NCBI RefSeq assembly: GCF_000341895.1
Contig: NC_020409.1
Coordinates: forward strand, 1,380,001 to 1,412,000
Source of the DNA: Pseudodesulfovibrio piezophilus C1TLV30
GTDB taxonomy: Bacteria; Desulfobacterota; Desulfovibrionia; Desulfovibrionales; Desulfovibrionaceae
Length of the DNA: 32,000 nt
Direction: 5' to 3'
Every line of letters starts with the position of its first letter. Position 1 is the first letter of the stretch. The notes under the pieces were generated by a model, which did no database searches, had not been told where the DNA came from, and worked only from the letters and a program-made list of their open reading frames with translations. Made by a program: the position numbers and the translations under genes. This document shows, in pieces, positions 10,611 to 26,298 of this stretch.

Positions 10611-10688
10611 GTCCCCATCGTCTAGTCTGGTCCAGGACGACGGCCTTTCACGCCGTTAACAGGGGTTCAAATCCCCTTGGGGACGCCA
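10611..10688 (+). tRNA. tRNA-Glu (anticodon TTC), copy 1
   Basis: 78 nt. GTCCCC...GGGGAC acceptor, anticodon loop CTTTCAC, T arm GGGGTTCAAATCCCC, encoded CCA. It is very close to E. coli tRNA-Glu. Confidence 0.95.
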
Positions 10689-14007: not shown

Positions 14008-14085
14008 GTCCCCATCGTCTAGTCTGGCCCAGGACGTCGGCCTTTCACGCCGTTAACAGGGGTTCAAATCCCCTTGGGGACGCCA
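14008..14085 (+). tRNA. tRNA-Glu (anticodon TTC), copy 2
   Basis: 78 nt and identical to copy 1 except at 2 positions (D-loop T to C; position 27 A to T). Confidence 0.95.
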
Positions 14086-17485: not shown

Positions 17486-17579
17486 GGAAGCGTTTCGGCA
17501 CCGGTGTGTCGCTTGGTCTTCAAAACCAATGTACGGCAGTGATGTCGTAGGCAGGTTCGACTCCTGTACGCTTCCGCCA
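17486..17579 (+). tRNA. selC: tRNA-Sec (anticodon TCA)
   Basis: 94 nt. 8-bp acceptor GGAAGCGT/ACGCTTCC, 6-bp D stem CGGCAC/GTGTCG with a 4-nt loop, anticodon loop CTTCAAA. The long variable arm is TACGGCA-GTGA-TGTCGTA, the 5-bp T stem carries TTCGACT, and the discriminator is G plus CCA. This is the canonical bacterial 8/5 Sec structure. Confidence 0.92.
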
Positions 17580-17581
17580 TT
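17513..17581 (+). repeat. attL: direct repeat copy 1 (anticodon stem to 3' end of tRNA-Sec)
   Basis: 69 bp repeated at 23292-23360 with 3 mismatches (17521, 17555, 17570; each is G/C here and A in the distal copy). Confidence 0.85.
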
Positions 17582-17589
17582 GTTAACAA

Positions 17590-17623
17590 AAATGCCGATC
17601 AGAAATGTTCGGCATTTTTTCTT
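17590..17623 (+). terminator. rho-independent terminator after selC
   Basis: AATGCCGA-loop-TCGGCATT followed by TTTTCTTT. Confidence 0.65.
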
Positions 17624-17881
17624 TCCAGAGTTGCCCAACACTCTTCCCAACATCCGTCGAAGGTTTTCGATTCGAAACTTGTTGACAAAATGCACTTTGA
17701 GGGCCGATTGAAGACCTAGGTCGCAGGCAGTTTATGGAGGCTGCGACAAACTCGCCGAGAATGGACAGTCAGAAAATCAAAGAATCTGGCGTATCCATTT
17801 TCACCCCACTATACGATGGCTTTCTGACCATCGCCGTCTATCTGCTTGATGCACCACCGCATCACTTATTCTGCCTATATT

Positions 17882-17922
17882 GTTCAAATATTGAACACTC
17901 CGTCTGAATTACGCTTATAATT
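17882..17922 (+). promoter_or_regulatory. palindromic operator overlapping a sigma70-like promoter inside the island
   Basis: Perfect 7-3-7 palindrome TGTTCAA-ATA-TTGAACA (17882-17898). TTGAAC (17892-17897) could act as a -35 and TATAAT (17917-17922) as a -10, with a 19-nt spacer. An RBS-preceded ATG follows at 18036. Confidence 0.35.
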
Positions 17923-18104
17923 TCTGTACGCAATGATCTGGCAATACTCTACTGATTGATTCTTTTCGCAATGAGCGATGGAATCAAATTGTTGGGAATG
18001 AGCCCACCACGCTCAACGGCTTTTAAGGAGTAGCAATGTCTACACTTATAAACGAGAGCATGCAGCCAAGATTATTGGAAAAAGTGTTTCCTGGCTGTAA
18101 AAAG

Positions 18105-18730
18105 ATAGAGGTTCTAGTCATAGTACCCCCGGCAAAGCCGGGGCTTGTAGCTTGTGAGCCACTCAAAGTGGCTTTAAGAACCGCCTAAAGGCGGAATTTC
18201 AGTTGCTCCATCCGCTTGTCGTCATCTTCTTGCTTGCGAATGTATTCCCTTATCATTTTTTCGTCTCGCCCTACTGTCGTGACGTAATATCCACGCGCCC
18301 AGAAGCTCTGCCCTGCAAATCCTTTTGCCCGACCTTGGACTTCTCGCGCTATGTGGATTGCACTTTTACCCTTTATGTAACCAACCACTTGGGACACCGA
18401 GTATTTGGGTGGAATCGCAATAGACATATGCACATGATCAACACACAAGTGCCCTTCCAGTATCTTGCTTTCTCGTTGTGCTACCAGTTTATGGAACACA
18501 TCGCCCAAGTAATTTCTAAGCTTTCCAAACAGCACCTTACGTCGGTACTTAGGTATCCAAACGATATGGTACTTGCAGTCCCATTTTGTATGACATAGGC
18601 TTGAATTGCACTTCTTTGAAGCCTCTCCCTTGCTCACTTTGAGCAGCTCACAAGGGGGGAGGCTTCATGCTACTCCCGCATAAGTCAAACTTCTATGGCC
18701 GCCCCAGCAGAGCTGGGGGGGGCTCTCATT
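18105..18730 (-). mobile_element. IS200/IS605-family insertion sequence (tnpA only); ends approximate
   Basis: A Y1 transposase gene is flanked by similar subterminal hairpins, CCCCGGCAAAGCCGGGG (18127-18143) and CCCCAGCAGAGCTGGGG (18702-18718). Confidence 0.75.
18185..18637 (-). CDS. tnpA: IS200/IS605 family Y1 (HUH) transposase
   Basis: 150 aa. KYHIVWIPKYRRKVL, the HUH motif in DHVHMSIAIPPKYSVSQVVGYIKGKS, and the catalytic Tyr region FWARGYYVTTVG. Confidence 0.92.
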   Translation of the reverse strand: MSKGEASKKCNSSLCHTKWDCKYHIVWIPKYRRKVLFGKLRNYLGDVFHKLVAQRESKILEGHLCVDHVHMSIAIPPKYSVSQVVGYIKGKSAIHIAREVQGRAKGFAGQSFWARGYYVTTVGRDEKMIREYIRKQEDDDKRMEQLKFRL

Positions 18731-19488
18731 GGGACTAGACAACAAAGCCACGAAGACGATAGCGCCGGAAGACGCTGCCACCACAAAGCGGGCATCGATT
18801 GCCCTGCGGACCCAGCTTCAGGGGCTACTACAATCGTCCGTGCTGACACGAAGCAAGGTCGGTCGCCATGGTCGACTGGATTCCCGGCAACTACACCGAT
18901 TGTCAGTAGCTGATGCTCGTGTCTTCAAGCGGAGTGGTCGCAAGGTGGGCATAAATGCCGCCGTGCACATCCTGCTTGATTACTCAGGCTCAATGCGACG
19001 GCGTATCAAGCTGACCACGCAGGTGTGTCATGCTGTGGCCTACTGCCCTGGACGCCATCGACGGCATCAGCGTGGGCGTGACGGCCTTTCCGGCAGACAC
19101 CCCGACCGACGGCGGCAATGGGAATGACCGTGGCCCCACGGTTTGCCCAGTTCTGAAACACGGGAAGCGGATGCATGGCAACTTCGCCATCAGCTCGGCA
19201 GGATACACTCCTTTGGGCGAGGCCCTCTGGTGGACATTGCAGCAAGTAGTGCCTCTCCCTGAGTCCAGAAAGGTCGTCCTTATTCTGACGGACGGAGATC
19301 CAGACTCCTTCAACATCGCTCTCGATGCTCTTGAAGAGGGCAACCGTTTCGGCATCGAAATCTACGGGCTGGGCATCTTGTCCGAGGCTATCACCAAACT
19401 GCTTCCCAACCACAGCCGCACCATCAACGACCTGCTTGAACTGGCCCCGGCCATGTTCGGCATACTTCGTGGTGCACTTCTCAAGTAA
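18729..19488 (+). pseudogene. CobT-like von Willebrand factor A (vWA) domain gene, frameshifted and probably 5'-disrupted by IS200
   Basis: Frame 1 carries GRLDSRQLHRL...DARVFKR...AVHILLDYSGSM (DxSxS MIDAS). The reading frame changes within 19015-19050. Frame 2 continues ALDAIDGISVGVTAF...TPLGEAL...VVLILTDGDPD...GIEIYGLGI. The open frame starts inside the IS end and has no ATG. Confidence 0.7.
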
Positions 19489-19511
19489 CCACCAGCAATC
19501 AAGAAGGAAAT

Positions 19512-19724
19512 ATGGACAAAGATATCCCCAAATGCCCGCGTTGTGAAAGCGCGGCTTTCGTTGTTTTGGTCAACACTACCCAAAAAGTCGGAACCGCTGT
19601 CTACGCCATGGACGAGGAAGAGCCTAGTTCCCTCGGACACGACGAAGACGTCCCGGAAGAACTGGATGAGGATATCGAAGAGGAAACGGATGACGATGGG
19701 AAACTGATCGGCCGAGCTTCGTAA
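19512..19724 (+). CDS. small hypothetical protein with CPRC motif and highly acidic tail
   Basis: RBS GAAGGAAAT precedes the ATG. 70 aa. The C-terminal 35 residues are dominated by D/E. Confidence 0.5.
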   Translation: MDKDIPKCPRCESAAFVVLVNTTQKVGTAVYAMDEEEPSSLGHDEDVPEELDEDIEEETDDDGKLIGRAS

Positions 19725-19824
19725 AAGAAAGAGCCGCTGGCATATGCGAGCGACTCTAAGCTAACCAAATGCAAACTCATCTATCGATTTTGACAGTCTA
19801 TTTCATTTATCCTATCATCAGTAT

Positions 19825-20286
19825 ATGTCTGAAGCACTTAAGAAATCGTTCCAAATGGGACTCGCCTGCTCAATTGTCGCTTTGGCGCATGCTTTAACAA
19901 TGCACCTAAGTATTAAAAATGCACCCCTGTCAGCTTCTTTCATTTCTGTCAGTGGCACATTGGTCGCTGGAACTGCTGCTTGGTATTGGCTTATTGCAAA
20001 GTGTCAACGGTATTCAACCACTAGAGGCTTCCTTGTCGGGCTGGCGACGGGCTGGATATCGCAATACCTTGGTATTGCTGGAGATTTAGTAGTGTCCGCC
20101 CTAGCCGAACATTCAACAACTTTGTCAAACCTTGTCAAAGCAGTGTTTTGGTCTCCTGTTCTTACAGTTTTTACTTTCTTTTTATATGGGTGGATGGTCA
20201 TTCTTGCATGTTCGGTGACAGGAGTTGTTCTCGTAAAAATACAGGCAAAGGCTGTTGGTAATGGCACATGTTGTCATCACCAATAG
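19825..20286 (+). CDS. hypothetical integral membrane protein (about 4 TM)
   Basis: Four hydrophobic segments and visibly lower GC than the flanks. No clear RBS, so the start is uncertain. Confidence 0.45.
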   Translation: MSEALKKSFQMGLACSIVALAHALTMHLSIKNAPLSASFISVSGTLVAGTAAWYWLIAKCQRYSTTRGFLVGLATGWISQYLGIAGDLVVSALAEHSTTLSNLVKAVFWSPVLTVFTFFLYGWMVILACSVTGVVLVKIQAKAVGNGTCCHHQ

Positions 20287-20308
20287 CGTACAATGCCTGC
20301 CGTTAAGT

Positions 20309-20656
20309 TTAATCAGTAATAGAAGGGCCGTCTTTGAGCCAGTTCACCAAAGCTGGAATAGATCCAACCTTTTTTTCAAGCGGCATATCCCAAGCAGTCT
20401 CACCAGCTTCCTGAATTGCATCCCAAGAGAATACTAAATCGCCTCTGTCGACGGCAGTAAGAACTTTGTCAATATCTTCCTGCGGCAAATCAGCCAGTCC
20501 TGCTTCAAGGTATGCTTCCGAGTGCGAATCATACGCCTTCTCTTTCAATTCCTCAGGCTTTGATTCGTCCCATTCGCCGCTGCGCAGGCCAGCCTCCATC
20601 TTAAACTGCAACCGGTCCTTGGTCCACTCCATCCATCCCTGCCCTTCTTCAGACAA
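20309..20656 (-). CDS. hypothetical acidic protein (115 aa)
   Basis: A TTG start lies directly after the TAA of the upstream ORF, with GAAGG 6 nt upstream (translational coupling). No domain recognised. Confidence 0.5.
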   Translation of the reverse strand: MSEEGQGWMEWTKDRLQFKMEAGLRSGEWDESKPEELKEKAYDSHSEAYLEAGLADLPQEDIDKVLTAVDRGDLVFSWDAIQEAGETAWDMPLEKKVGSIPALVNWLKDGPSITD

Positions 20657-21736
20657 TTAAGCCTTCAACTTGTCGAACCGCTTGACGTATTTGTCCCCAT
20701 ACTCCCGGTAATAGTCGGGAGCCTTCTTGCCGAGATTGCGTTCTTCAAAATCTTTGGCTCGCTTTTCATAATACTCGGTTTTGCCAAGTTCATCCTTGAC
20801 CCATGTGGGCTTGGAGCCGGGCTTCTGCTTGTAATGCTCGTCGACATCCATGGTGCTGTTGCCGGTCTGCTTTTCCCATTCGCCGATGAGTCGGGCAGCT
20901 TCTGTCGCGTTGTCAGGTTTGGCGGCTTCGGCTTTCCCTTCCATCTCCCGCGCCTGTTCCACAGATGACTTGGCTGGAGCAGCCTCGGGCACATCTGCCT
21001 TTTCTTTTCCCTCAACCGTTTTCTGCCGTTGCAGTTGTTCGCTCTCTTTACCGTTCTCACCTGTCGTCGGAATTTCCGCAGTTTGTGCTTTTTCAACCCC
21101 CGCATACCCCAAGTACTTGTCATACATGGTGTCGGCGTCCTTTTCATCGAACTTGACCTCAGACATCACGTACTTATTGATGAGGTCAAAAGCCGCATCG
21201 TCGTGCGCCTGGACATCTTTGTCATCCTTTGCGCCGAGTGCGCCTTGAGCGAAACGCTGCAACCCCTTGTCGAGAACGCTTCTGGAGCGCTCATTGAGCT
21301 TGTCCACGGCGAACTGGTGGCCCTGTTTCAGGAAACCATCCTTGATCTTGGGTAACGAGTCTGCCAGGGCAGTATGCCGCTTGCCGCCTTTGGGTACGGA
21401 CGAAAGCAGGGAGTGCTCATAATCATCGAACTGCTTCTTGAGACCGTTCGCGTCCTTGGACGGCTTATTGCCGGTGACGTTCTTCTGCCAGTCGGTCAGC
21501 CCTTTACCGAAGAAGTCGTGCGCCTCGTTTTCTTTTTCAACGGTGAAATTGAGGCGATCCAGGTCATGGTAGGCATCGCGCTTTTGCTGCCGTTGTTGCT
21601 GCTGCCGCTGGTTCTGATTGTTGGAGCCAATCTCCATTTCCAGGGCCGTCTTGCGCTGCCCAGGAGTGGCGTTGTCGAGCATCTTTTTCTGCTCGTCTGG
21701 GTTCATAGTGATAAGTGATTTTCCGAAATCAAACAT
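20657..21736 (-). CDS. hypothetical protein (359 aa), Gln-rich N-terminus, Lys/Glu-rich
   Basis: Strong RBS AGGAGGAAT. No TM segment or signal peptide. No domain recognised. Confidence 0.6.
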   Translation of the reverse strand: MFDFGKSLITMNPDEQKKMLDNATPGQRKTALEMEIGSNNQNQRQQQQRQQKRDAYHDLDRLNFTVEKENEAHDFFGKGLTDWQKNVTGNKPSKDANGLKKQFDDYEHSLLSSVPKGGKRHTALADSLPKIKDGFLKQGHQFAVDKLNERSRSVLDKGLQRFAQGALGAKDDKDVQAHDDAAFDLINKYVMSEVKFDEKDADTMYDKYLGYAGVEKAQTAEIPTTGENGKESEQLQRQKTVEGKEKADVPEAAPAKSSVEQAREMEGKAEAAKPDNATEAARLIGEWEKQTGNSTMDVDEHYKQKPGSKPTWVKDELGKTEYYEKRAKDFEERNLGKKAPDYYREYGDKYVKRFDKLKA

Positions 21737-21961
21737 AGCCGAATTCCTCCTGTCAGGATTTTGATTGTTTAAAGATCAAACAGCCTAACCCCGGTTTTCG
21801 GCCCAGGATGAAAACGGGCAAAAAAGGACGAAAAAGGACACTAAAAGGGCAAGAAATCCACTTGACAGCGCTTTTCCATCAAGATGTTTTGGCGGAAATG
21901 CGAAATCCGCGCTATTCTAGTGGGTTAGCGAGGCGGGGCAATGCTGCCGAATTTCATTCAG

Positions 21962-23142
21962 TTAGCGGTGTTTGGAAAGCTGGATAATTTCTTTCTCTGC
22001 ATCATCCTTCATGGCATCCGTAATAATATCCTCAGCCACATTCGCGGCTTTCTTCAAGGCATCATCATGCAGGTGCGCATATCGTTGCGTCATCTGCGGG
22101 CTCTTATGCGTCAAGAGCTTCTGAAGCGTGGACATGTCCACCTTGCCGGAACTGGCGAGCATGGATGCGTAAACATGACGCAAGCCGTGCAGAGGGCGGA
22201 AATCCTTCGGAAGATTTGCCCGTTCTTTGATGCGCTTGATAGGACCACGGACATCCTTGCGCTGCCCACCGTTTTGGCTAGGGAATACATAGGGGCTCTT
22301 CGTTCGACTGTGGGACTCAAGCAGTTCCCTTGCAGCTTTCATCATCGGGATCTTTTGCGACACACCACCCTTAGGATCGTCCAGCAGAATAAAACCGCGC
22401 TCAAAGTCCAGGTCTTTCCATTTGAGACGAAACAACTCGCCACGCCACATGCCTGTGTACACAGCCAGCTTCATCATTCTTGCGACGTCGATATTGGAGT
22501 CTACATCGATAGCCTTGAGGAGTGCCTTGAGCTGGTCAGCAGATAAATCCTCTGTCTTGACGTTGTCTACCTGGGGAATCTCAATGCTAAGTTTGGATGG
22601 ATCAGGCAGCGGGCACAGTCCTTTTTTACCCCGAAGTTTATGAGTCGCTTCAGGAGTGAAAGGATGAGCTTCACAGTCTGAGGTGACTTCTTATCCTTCT
22701 TGAGCAAACGCAGGCGCAACCGGTCTACGTCGAGAGTAATGATGTCGGCAGGAACCTTGTCGCCGACCTCCGGCTTAAGGTATTTCTTGTATCGACTCTT
22801 GTCGGGAAGATGCCCCTTGTAGTTGGTCTTCTGGGCTTCGTATTCGTCCCACAGACGTGTAATCGTAGGACGCTCTTCGCGCTCCTTGCGTTCTGCCTCT
22901 TCCTGCTCTCGACGTTCCCTGTTGGACTGCTCGTCGCCATCGATTCGCATGCTCCGAATTCGGGAGGCCCGTGCCGGGGTCATGTCGTCTCTTTTTTGCC
23001 TTCCGGCCTTCTCTTCGACGAGTTTTCCCGCTTTTCGGTACAAAATATAGTAGATTTTCTCCGGCTTCCCGTTGACCTTGTTTGTACCATCTACGGAGTA
23101 AACACCCGGATAGCCTGTCTTAAATCTTTCCTTTCTCGGCAT
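21962..23142 (-). pseudogene. int: tyrosine recombinase/integrase, split by a -1 frameshift in an A6 tract
   Basis: The N-terminal ORF (start ATG 23142, RBS GGAG) ends ...LINFGVKKDCARC...*. A second frame continues GKKGLCPLPDPSKLSIEIPQVDNVKTEDLSADQLKALLKAID...MMKLAVYTGMWRGELF...HGLRHVYAS...THKSPQMTQRYAH (R..HxxR..Y catalytic set). The frames join at T6/A6 22622-22627, and one extra A would restore GVKKGLCP. Confidence 0.85.
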
Positions 23143-23255
23143 CGCTTTGCTCCGTTGTGCCCAACAAAGTACCCAACATTTAGGGTGAAAACAGGGGTAA
23201 AACGGTGCAACGTCAAGCAAGTCATTTTTTAGATTTATTCAAAATAATAAGCTAC

Positions 23256-23285
23256 ATGCAAGACAATGCAAAAAGATGCAAAAAC
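23256..23285. repeat. three phased 10-bp direct repeats (ATGCAAGACA ATGCAAAAAG ATGCAAAAAC)
   Basis: Tandem repeats with helical periodicity lie between the int start and the attR core. They are candidate arm-type Int binding sites. Confidence 0.45.
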
Positions 23286-23291
23286 CTTGCT

Positions 23292-23360
23292 TTGGTCTTA
23301 AAAACCAATGTACGGCAGTGATGTCGTAGGCAGATTCGACTCCTGTACACTTCCGCCATT
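23292..23360 (+). repeat. attR: direct repeat copy 2 (partial, mutated tRNA-Sec 3' portion)
   Basis: TTGGTCTTAAAAACCAATGTACGGCAGTGATGTCGTAGGCAGATTCGACTCCTGTACACTTCCGCCATT matches 17513-17581 at 66 of 69 positions. Its three differences fall on the anticodon and on paired T-stem and acceptor-stem positions. Confidence 0.85.
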
Positions 23361-23420
23361 TTTGTTTTTAGAGGCGTACCTAACACTATCTCCAGCAGAT
23401 GGCGTGAATTTGGAAACTAG

Positions 23421-23927: not shown

Positions 23928-24176
23928 GCAATCTCTTACCTACGAAGAGTTTTACCTAGAGGCAAAAGAGAGGTTCCAGATACCCCTTAACAACAAGGGG
24001 GGAGCCTGCCCCATTTCGGCAACTGATATTCTCAAAATGGATTTTCCACATAATCCATTTCTTTTGGAGAATGTTTGCAGCACATGACCACCCCCAACAC
24101 TCTCGGCTGAAATATCCGCTTTTTTTCAAACAGTTACGACCAATCCGTGCGGCTTTAACCATTTATTGCCATTCTA

Positions 24177-24717
24177 TCACATACCGCACACTCCCTCCCC
24201 GCCGGTCTGGACGAGCATCCCGGCATCAACCAACCTTTTCAGATCGCGTGTCGCTATCGCAGAGGATACTTTTGTCATGCCGTTGTACTTCTTGTTCGAA
24301 AAGCCGCCCTCGAAACCGTCTGGGCCAGCGTCGAGCACCTTGTTAAGCACCTTCCGCTAGCGGTCATTGATGGTGACCCCGGAAAACCGTTTCCGGAAGT
24401 CTGCCTTCATAATGGTCAGTCGGGTCAACTCGCGGGAGTTCCGCATCCCCTGCTCAACGGTTTCGAGGAACCAATATAGCCACCCAGCGAGGTCGTCTTC
24501 GCCCTTTTTCGCCTCCTCCAGGATCGGGTCATACGCCCTCCGGGATGCCGGAATCTGTAAGGGTATACTGTAGGGACGTTTTCTTGTCCTGGGCCATGGC
24601 CATGTCGGTGATCGCCCGAGCGAGGCGCCCGTTGCCATCGTCGAACGGATGCAAAGTGACGAACCAGAAATGGCCGTTCCCTGGCAATACGCATTTCGCC
24701 ATCTTCAATCTCACCAA
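24177..24717 (-). pseudogene. Fic-family (Fido) protein pseudogene
   Basis: The Fic motif HPFDDGNGRLARAI is present. A frameshift follows AMAQD, and the next frame reads RPYSIPLQIPASRRAYDPILEEAKKGEDDLAGWLYWFLE. An in-frame TAG at 24357-24359 interrupts TINDR*RKVLNKVLDAGPDGFEGGFSNKKY...TATRDLKRLVDAGML (C-terminal wHTH). The N-terminal part is missing. Confidence 0.8.
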
Positions 24718-24999
24718 AAGTTATTTCAAACAGCTCGTATTTGCCTCGGGTAATGGAGGGTTGATTATGAGTTTACTTTGAGCACTGGCCAGCGCGGCTA
24801 AATACGCGCCTGAAAAACCTGTCAAGCACAATCGATCGAACCCAGCCTGTTTTTGGGCGACGGATGCGTGCATTTTGCCGACATGAAATCGTTGTTGAAC
24901 GACAACGCCGTGTTTCGCTCATTTGGGCCGAAAAACCCATGGTACGCTCTCCGCAAACAAAAACAGGGCCGTCTAGCTCAGTGGTCCGGAGGAGATCCT

Positions 25000-25356
25000 A
25001 TGAGCGTATTTGAAATGAGGCTGAAGCATGACCGGAACGGTCGAATCGTGGAGAGAACAGAAACCGTGGCCGGTCGGACCAACGTTTGGAGGTATGCCTA
25101 CGACAAGGCCGGGAGGCTCTTCGAGGCGCACCGGGAAAACCGGCTCATCTGCCAGTGCTGGTACGACCGGGAAGGCCGTCGCCAGCGGGACTATTTCCCC
25201 GCCACCGTGGGGTCCAGTCATCGCGATTATCGCTACACCCTGGACAACCGACTTATGAGCGCGGGCAACAACGGGTACACACATGACAAGAACGGGTCCC
25301 GTTCCATCTGGTCGAACGGCTCCGCGTACCATCTGTACGAGTACGCGCCGGACTAA
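25000..25356 (+). CDS. RHS/YD-repeat protein fragment (ends at in-frame TAA 25354-25356)
   Basis: YD repeats are visible (WRYAYDKAGRL, CWYDREGRR, YRYTLDNRL, YTHDKNGSR). ATG 25000 has a strong RBS (GGAGGAG). The track ORF starts earlier, at TTG 24853. The same frame continues after the stop into 25369-26247. Confidence 0.6.
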   Translation: MSVFEMRLKHDRNGRIVERTETVAGRTNVWRYAYDKAGRLFEAHRENRLICQCWYDREGRRQRDYFPATVGSSHRDYRYTLDNRLMSAGNNGYTHDKNGSRSIWSNGSAYHLYEYAPD

Positions 25357-25368
25357 CGGCTGCTCAAG

Positions 25369-26247
25369 ATGGAAGTGGAGAACCAGAACCGCGTCTACAC
25401 CTTTCGCCACGACGAAGAGGGCCGACGGGCCGCCAAGTACCTCAACGGCCAAATTGTCGAGGCCTACCAATGGTTCGACTTCATCCGCCTCGGCGCGTTC
25501 CACGACGGGCACATGGGGTACGAGTTCGGTTACGCAGATAACGCGCGGCTGCCCTTATCCATGCGGCGCGAGGACGGGGCGGTGTTCGCCCTGCATTACG
25601 ACCAGGTCGGTTCCCTGCGCGTGGTTGCTGACACGGATGGCGACATGATAAAGGAAATCCTCTACGATCCCTTTGGCGGAATTATAGCGGACACCAATCC
25701 CGGTTTCCGCATCCCCATCGGCTTTGCGGGCGGCCTGCATGACCGCGATCTTGGTTTCGTGAGATTCGACTGGCGGGACTACGACACCTTCACCGGCAGA
25801 TGGACCGCACCCGATCCCATCGGGGACAGGGGCGGTGATCCGGACTGGTATGGGTATTGTCTGGATGATCCGGTCAACGGGGTGAACCCGGTGGGACTGT
25901 TCCGGTTCGGTAAAAAAGGACTGTGGATACTGCCCGGTATAGGCACCGACGGCTCTACCGCCGATAAGAGAAACTATGAACTCAAGCATGAACACGGTTT
26001 CTACGAAGATGGTACGGGAGATAATGTAGGTCTGTTTAAAAATGGTATCAAAAGAGATCAAGATATCATCAAATACAAACTTGACGAAACACACTTCGAC
26101 GATAAACGCATGAGACAGGCTGAAGAGAGTCTTTATCCGGGAAATTACAAGCTGTGCAAGTGGGGAGGCAAGTCCAATAATTGCCAGGACTATGCCGATG
26201 CTTTGCGCGAACGTTATCGGTTTTTACGCACTGCGGAAAAGCACTGA
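25369..26247 (+). CDS. RHS repeat-associated core C-terminus fused to a polymorphic toxin tip (CT1, papain-like His...Cys signature)
   Basis: FRHDEEGRR, YDQVGSLR, YDPFGG and GFAGGLHDRDLGFVRFDWRDYDTFTGRWTAPDPIGDRGGDPDWYGYCLDDPVNGVNPVGL form the RHS core end with the DPxGL demarcation. A 115-aa variable tip follows, containing KHEHGFYEDG ... YKLCKWGGKSNNCQDYADAL. Confidence 0.8.
   Translation: MEVENQNRVYTFRHDEEGRRAAKYLNGQIVEAYQWFDFIRLGAFHDGHMGYEFGYADNARLPLSMRREDGAVFALHYDQVGSLRVVADTDGDMIKEILYDPFGGIIADTNPGFRIPIGFAGGLHDRDLGFVRFDWRDYDTFTGRWTAPDPIGDRGGDPDWYGYCLDDPVNGVNPVGLFRFGKKGLWILPGIGTDGSTADKRNYELKHEHGFYEDGTGDNVGLFKNGIKRDQDIIKYKLDETHFDDKRMRQAEESLYPGNYKLCKWGGKSNNCQDYADALRERYRFLRTAEKH
25670..25890 (+). 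repeat. RHS core-end repeat, copy 1
   Basis: 221 bp repeated at 26848-27068 (offset 1178). The copies are near-identical except for a 14-nt divergent patch (25699-25712) and 3 SNPs. Confidence 0.9.
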
Positions 26248-26298
26248 TGCAACAATACGGCCGGGAGACAATTGTCTCCCGGCTGAAAAGGGATTTTT

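Follow-up and report, generated by a model that had tools for sequence, protein, structure and literature searches.

In the tRNA- and tmRNA-gene islands mapped by Islander, the integrase splits the transfer RNA (tRNA) gene, the island restores the gene and the displaced fragment marks the other end (PMC4383910). We find an island with the same anatomy (PMC4383910) in a stretch of 32,000 nucleotides (nt) from Pseudodesulfovibrio piezophilus C1TLV30 (NC_020409.1, positions 1,380,001 to 1,412,000), hereafter the window, in whose own numbering all positions are given. The selC gene of this organism, encoding tRNA-Sec, is the site of a mobile-element remnant of ~5.8 kb (17582-23291). This interval is very probably what is left of an element that integrated site-specifically into the single tRNA-Sec gene of P. 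piezophilus and that is now locked in place and vertically inherited. There is no difference in principle from Islander-type islands; the window island is decayed and lies in tRNA-Sec of a deep-sea member of the Desulfovibrionaceae.

P. piezophilus, formerly assigned to Desulfovibrio, is a deep-sea sulfate reducer that depends on selenoproteins. In enterobacteria, selC is an island hotspot, sometimes occupied in tandem, and both the islands found there and retronphage phiR73 have a P4-like integrase and use a short block at the very end, on the 3' side, of selC. These elements have the same target gene as the window island, in a different phylum and with an integrase that is probably of another type, and their short terminal block contrasts with one of 69 nt from the anticodon stem here. 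The enterobacterial hotspot, invoked in an earlier note on this DNA, thus holds as an analogy but not as the context, the host being P. piezophilus. An anticodon-loop class of tRNA attachment sites was reportedly described by Williams in Nucleic Acids Research in 2002. As in the window, identity in this class runs from the 5' side of the anticodon stem to the 3' end, and a symmetric anticodon stem surrounds a 7-nt loop, the arrangement expected when core sites flank an overlap region. The selC island is presented as an ordinary type of element, real and well documented, which does not change the accepted view of how tRNA-gene elements work. It adds a clearly resolved case in which tRNA-Sec serves as an integration hotspot in a bacterium other than an enterobacterium, here a sulfate reducer that relies on selenoproteins.

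The 3' half of tRNA-Sec recurs beside an integrase gene

The intact selC gene scores 80.8 bits with the Rfam tRNA-Sec model (gathering score 47). Its 3' part recurs at the far end of the island as a direct repeat of 69 nt with 3 mismatches, or 72 nt with 4 mismatches when extended (Table 1). The repeat is confirmed as the earlier note had reported it. When up to 3 mismatches are tolerated, a 26-nt portion of the repeat occurs 2 times, against 0.00 occurrences expected from 100 shuffles. The intact tRNA, the displaced fragment and the tyrosine integrase gene inside, next to an att site, make up the attL/attR signature of integration into a tRNA 3' half.

All three mismatches are changes to A in the distal copy. 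C17521 of the proximal gene corresponds to A23300, which turns the anticodon TCA into TAA; G17555 corresponds to A23334 in the T-stem, and G17570 to A23349 in the acceptor stem. At the T-stem and acceptor-stem positions Rfam marks broken pairs in the distal copy, which scores 33.8 bits, below threshold. Related integrase-proximal fragments retain TCA, GGTTCGA and TACGC in 5/5 cases, and hence the three A's are derived changes of the distal copy, as had been proposed. These G/C-to-A changes fit ordinary decay. A strand-specific mutation signature behind them was considered and rejected, the 59 base differences (1.1% of bases) between the window and a near-identical strain (L044, below) going in all directions.

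On the minus strand, the tyrosine integrase gene has its ATG at 23142, 150 nt inside the distal copy, and reads inward, which bears out the earlier description. What that description lacked is that the integrase is itself a pseudogene. One A is missing from the A-run at 22622-27, and the resulting frameshift splits the gene into open reading frames (ORFs) of 191 and 171 residues. The frameshift-restored protein has 393 residues, and its closest homologues, 89-91% identical, are intact. In box I the window reads TGMWRGE where 10/10 aligned relatives read TGMRRGE; the codon is TGG (Trp) at 22445-47, giving R233W. We take R233 to be the catalytic Arg I from the TG-x-R motif of XerC/D and lambda Int. 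No frame of the window integrase holds the complete catalytic set R-K-H-R-H/W-Y. Both lesions also occur in two separately assembled metagenome contigs, L044 and L029. Judged by its sequence, the window integrase is dead, through the frameshift plus the change of a catalytic Arg to Trp.

The ratio of non-synonymous to synonymous change (dN/dS) of the integrase against two intact relatives, L007 and L008, is low (0.06-0.08) and by itself is no demonstration of decay. Non-synonymous change is 0.077 for the window integrase versus 0.052 between the two intact genes. This excess is only slight, so that inactivation is recent relative to the divergence from L007 and L008. In NCBIfam the protein gave generic Xer-like matches only, all far below cut-offs. 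IntDes tyrosine recombinases, in which the first catalytic His is replaced by Tyr, also come from Desulfovibrio-like bacteria (PMC8138268). The window family shares such hosts and differs at this residue, which is His rather than Tyr. Membership of IntDes was rejected, as the His in LHGLRH is invariant in the window family.

Related elements share the attachment-site layout and differ in tRNA target

The restored integrase has 5652 homologues at E<=1e-10. Every contig fetched for the 89-91% identical homologues carries a tRNA-Sec 3' fragment ~200 nt upstream of the integrase gene, in the orientation of the window, with no complete tRNA at that fragment. Integrase gene and fragment were found together in 5/5 close relatives examined and in 9/12 more distant ones. 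The shared attP layout consists of the integrase gene, two or three CCCAACA-type repeats 12 nt apart, and a tRNA 3' fragment from the anticodon stem. Variable-arm stems of the related fragments differ by paired changes (AC..GT, TG..CA and GT..AC), as expected because the fragment must function as tRNA after integration. A scan of genome contigs with the tRNA 3' 30-mer gave 14 loci, the window's own genome not being among them.

A complete relative lies in another Pseudodesulfovibrio (NZ_CP182342.1), where an intact selC (2737055-2737148) and the integrase-proximal fragment (2758194-2758262) are 21.1 kb apart. A hairpin and two CCCAACA repeats follow its selC, and three such repeats precede the fragment. 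Its integrase gene is adjoined by those for a Toprim primase and a D5_N/DUF5906 helicase; the parts of this element that were read showed neither capsid nor conjugation genes. P4-like satellites and mobilisable islands likewise have a primase-helicase module, which the window copy has lost. Judged against this 21 kb relative, the window island appears to have lost about three quarters of its length.

In 9/12 of the more distant relatives, from IMG/VR (38-58% identity; loci L032-L043), the layout is retained but the 3' fragment comes from another tRNA. Targets, read with the layout by eye from the anticodon loops, are Arg(CCG), Glu(CTC), Met(CAT), Asp(GTC), Asn(GTT), Thr(CGT) and one unassigned, and each fragment begins near the anticodon stem. 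One locus, L036, is a whole 9 kb element in tRNA-Asn, with a hairpin following the intact tRNA. The integrase family is thus widespread, its attachment-site layout constant and its tRNA target changing.

Within each arm of the window the CCCAACA repeats are spaced 12 nt, and CCCAACA-N5-CCCAACA occurs in the 32 kb only after selC and beside the integrase gene (0 expected by chance). Features of the P arm are conserved in L007, L008 and L010, and the layout of a hairpin and arm repeats after an intact tRNA recurs in L015, L020 and L036. The motif stands on both arms in L015/L024 as well, and likewise in L036 with the variant CCCACCA. Because L036, in tRNA-Asn, carries its own variant on both arms, the arm repeats travel with the integrase and not with the tRNA locus. 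Across the family the repeat varies with the integrase (CCCAACA, CCCACCA, CCCCACA and TCCAACC). The CCCAACA-type repeats are likely arm-type binding sites of the integrase.

A bolder reading, which we regard as rather improbable, is that a large integrase family keeps a fixed attP scaffold in which the tRNA cassette has been swapped repeatedly, the working tRNA-Sec of the type strain being a chimera sustained by a dead element. Each insertion in P. piezophilus would then rewrite the 3' 69 nt of its sole tRNA-Sec, including the whole variable arm, and sister strains would hold different versions of this tRNA. If, in addition, variable-arm variants alter charging or the use by SelB, mobile elements would tune selenoprotein synthesis.

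selC varies among closely related strains

Parts of the window are matched, at 98.9-100% identity, by metagenome contigs of JGI samples 3300009847-9 and of Logan runs SRR1344818-22. Contig L044 spans 17513-22866 at 98.9% and carries the IS200 copy, the truncation, the frameshift and the Trp codon, all as in the window. Its 475-residue gene is intact, whereas that of the window has a stop codon. Since L044 has the integrase lesions and an intact 475-residue gene, the integrase died before the window and L044 split, and the stop codon is younger. A side observation is that 30 of the 59 differences fall in a 145-nt stretch of the CobT-like remnant (18845-18989), which suggests recombination or gene conversion in this patch.

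Contig L045 (sample 3300009849, contig Ga0118705_100287) matches the window from 18844 down to 17513 at 99.3%. Past 17513 it continues into another element instead of the tRNA 5' half. This element has two CCCCACA repeats 12 nt apart and an intact integrase of 383 residues (P0016), 62% identical to that of the window, together with genes for an HTH_17 excisionase-like protein, an HTH_36 protein, a second integrase fragment and a pentapeptide-repeat protein of 767 residues. It appears intact and is at least 11 kb long (up to ~18 kb if the contig ends at selC), lying between selC and the dead island. From the same sample, L027 carries the window's left flank and tRNA 5' half at 99.9%, with TG instead of AC at 17532-33 in the variable arm, just before the contig end.

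The simplest reading of L045 and L027 is a strain in which a third element inserted in selC, displacing the window-type 3' half and the dead island downstream. The new 3' half of L027 would have been supplied by the L045 element, whose far end is predicted to bear a P' arm of its own and, after it, a tRNA-Sec 3' half with GTTGGGCAG. The selC site is polymorphic among strains for a second element and, as the sister strain shows, is still being hit. Together the strains give a population snapshot of tandem build-up and decay: in at least two of them the dead island is fixed, and another carries a newly inserted element. Metagenomes scanned for the right junction, and for the left flank joined to the tRNA 5' half, gave no match, which is uninformative because the collection lacks the JGI contigs known to hold the second pattern.

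Proposed integration, probable loss of mobility and alternative explanations

In the course of events that we propose, the tyrosine integrase of the element would have recombined its attP, carrying a tRNA copy from anticodon stem to CCA, with selC. The crossover would have taken place in or near the anticodon loop, which is the likely overlap region of the recombination. The element's copy would thereby have become the 3' 69 nt of the working tRNA, with an element-borne terminator hairpin added behind it, making tRNA-Sec a chimera of a host 5' part to 17512 and an element 3' part from 17513. The former 3' part of selC would have been displaced 5.8 kb downstream, beside the integrase gene. Loss of length, gain of IS200, death of the integrase and mutation of the attR anticodon loop would have followed, locking the element in place. 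attR and attL differ at the central base of this loop, and a mismatch in the overlap blocks lambda-type recombination. With the integrase dead and this attR position mutated, the element would be immobile and passed on vertically.

Several points weigh against this account. The crossover position and the function of the arm sites are deduced from conservation. The attL and attR of the window have the same AC..GT variable arm, so the element-derived copy is not identifiable from the sequence. The origin of the 3' half of L027 is deduced from co-occurrence in one sample, and the two contigs do not join. Neither an empty-site allele nor a circular junction was found for the island, and the sole near-identical strain seen, L044, carries it. 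The earlier note had looked to an empty site in related genomes, and to its absence from all of them as a refutation. That comparison gave none for the island and a selC polymorphic for the second element instead; the presence of the interval in close relatives does not refute integration, because a fixed dead island is expected there, as L044 shows.

Could the distal copy have arisen in assembly, or by duplication of the tRNA 3' half on the spot, with an unrelated integrase nearby? Metagenome assemblies do break at the repeat, as they would at any repeat. Assembly duplication is excluded, however, because the two copies differ (at 3 positions) and in the separately assembled L029, L044 and L045 the interior recurs along with both types of junction. 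As the pairing of integrase gene and fragment also recurs throughout the close relatives and in most of the distant ones with other tRNAs, we give this explanation practically no weight. An island that still moves in trans, through the integrase of a sibling element in the same cell, is a less remote idea though still very unlikely. Both CCCAACA repeat pairs are intact, and siblings with active-looking integrases circulate in the same population. Against this, the sibling seen has the different arm repeat CCCCACA, the attL and attR overlaps are mismatched as described, no excisionase-like gene is left in the island, and the island has been retained in a strain 1.1% different (L044).

The stretch right of the island bears on a broader alternative, in which 17582 to ~29500 is one composite selC region built by successive integrations, the island being the youngest unit in this strain and the sequence from 23361 the decayed left end of an older element. 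Here 23361-23420 can be aligned with the P' arm found after selC in L020 (~80% identical by our own count) and contains degenerate arm repeats; a Fic pseudogene, RHS tip cassettes and an IS4/5 fragment lie downstream; and tandem insertion at selC is directly seen in L045. Yet a sensitive search found no third tRNA-Sec fragment in the window, and there is no integrase to the right of the island. The similar stretch is short (~55 nt), and because a weaker version of it follows a seemingly unoccupied selC in L022, it could be native sequence. We consider the chances of such a composite region about even. The 60 nt from 23361 are probably, to go by their alignment, the scar of an older element at selC, and the island seems to be the middle one in a tandem series there, with the degenerate older arm on its right and the younger element of the sister strain on its left.

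Interior of the island

The features of the island are listed in Table 1. Decay, which the earlier note had ascribed to the island, is seen as lesions in the integrase, CobT-like and 475-residue genes.

Table 1. Features of the selC island and adjoining sequence (window positions).
Feature	Position	Strand	Remarks
Intact tRNA-Sec (selC), anticodon TCA	17486-17579	+	ARAGORN; Rfam full length
attL identity block, anticodon stem-loop to CCA plus 2 nt	17513-17581	+	Direct repeat D3; L044/L045 break or switch exactly at 17513
P' arm	17582-17655	+	Terminator-like hairpin 17592-17615, T-run 17616-21, CCCAACA at 17634 and 17646
IS200/IS605 copy, ends approximate (single copy)	18100-18730	-	tnpA 18185-18637
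CobT/VWA-like pseudogene, residues 283-531 left	18735-19485	+	Frameshift near 19040; first 282 codons gone, beside IS200
70-residue ORF	19512-19724	+	First ~30 residues match start of small gene adjoining cobT in relatives
153-residue hydrophobic ORF, cargo	19825-20286	+	Lower-GC sequence, 0.45-0.46
475-residue gene with in-frame TAA at 20657-20659	20309-21736	-	Translation
Tyrosine integrase pseudogene	21962-23142	-	Phage_integrase 1.7e-28; frameshift and Arg I to Trp
P arm between integrase gene and core (149 nt)	23143-23291	+	CCCAACA at 23160 and 23172, conserved ATGCAA(A) repeats
attR, displaced tRNA-Sec 3' fragment	23292-23360	+	Three derived A's (23300, 23334, 23349)
Degenerate P'-like arm (CCTAACA...TCCAGCA), no terminator hairpin	23361-23420	+	Aligns with post-selC sequence of L020

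Between the left arm repeats and the IS200 copy are ~450 nt without recognisable genes. The IS200 copy that the earlier note had placed in the island is genuine. Its tnpA product matches Pfam Y1_Tnp (1.3e-36, 125.8 bits), as expected of a Y1 (HUH) transposase, and NCBIfam transpos_IS200 (2.1e-41, 141 bits vs a cut-off of 55), and is identical to CCH48571. Hairpins are visible at 18125-18195 and 18700-18726, there being no second copy to fix its exact ends, and 18625-18721 weakly matches STnc490, an RNA of the IS200 5' end.

The CobT-like remnant comprises the last 249 codons of the gene. A tblastn search with the 531-residue protein of L007 places residues 283-384 in frame 3 and 385-531 in frame 1, with 78-79% identity, and the similarity is also seen by blastn and tblastx. 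For the adjoining 70-residue ORF, tblastn matches to L007 and L008 cover only residues 1-30 and 1-26; DNA similarity to L008 is found at 19600-19755.

ORFs of 359 and 115 residues are a single gene of 475 residues divided by a stop codon. Intact forms of the protein (P0152 and P0153) have Glu at the stop position, and base 20659 is A in the window and C in L044. The 475-, 153- and 70-residue proteins have no Pfam or PHROG match, the ORFs of the window have no PADLOC match and the intact 475-residue form has no NCBIfam match.

Four proteins of the window are identical to C1TLV30 entries: besides the IS200 transposase, the adenosylhomocysteinase to CCH48557, the aldo/keto reductase to CCH48590 and the 359-residue ORF of the island to CCH48576. 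The genome paper of P. piezophilus lists seven genomic islands, none at the gene index of the selC island, and its Table S4 gives DESPIv2_10889 and 10890 as 'no hits' and 10891 as integrase. From accession numbering we infer that DESPIv2_10889-10891 correspond to the selC-island ORFs, and by the same gene numbering the island does not appear among the seven.

Flanking sequence

Right of the degenerate arm, a Fic-family pseudogene (24160-24900, minus strand) has its HPFxxGNGR motif and C-terminal parts distributed among three reading frames. At 24853-27395 are tip fragments of the RHS/YD-repeat type, followed by small ORFs; in this stretch, which holds a direct repeat of 236 nt (25666-25901 and 26844-27079, 93% identical), metagenome contigs break or differ. 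An IS4/5-family transposase fragment (28802-29101, minus strand; DUF4096, 1.3e-15) immediately precedes a cluster of sugar-modification genes beginning at 29631.

To the left, the gene order is ABM protein, extracytoplasmic function (ECF) sigma factor, two small ORFs, a small c-type cytochrome-like protein and selC. This flank is syntenic with three other Pseudodesulfovibrio genomes and hence is core chromosome. Further left, 3.4 kb separates two full tRNA-Glu(TTC) genes (10611-10688 and 14008-14085; 83-nt repeat, 98% identical). From 17606 to 14068 the window is matched at 99.9% identity by metagenome contig L026, which then diverges inside the second tRNA-Glu. Beyond that point it carries genes for a radical SAM protein, an rve transposase, MazE and a relaxase, and looks like a strain-specific mobilisable island in tRNA-Glu.

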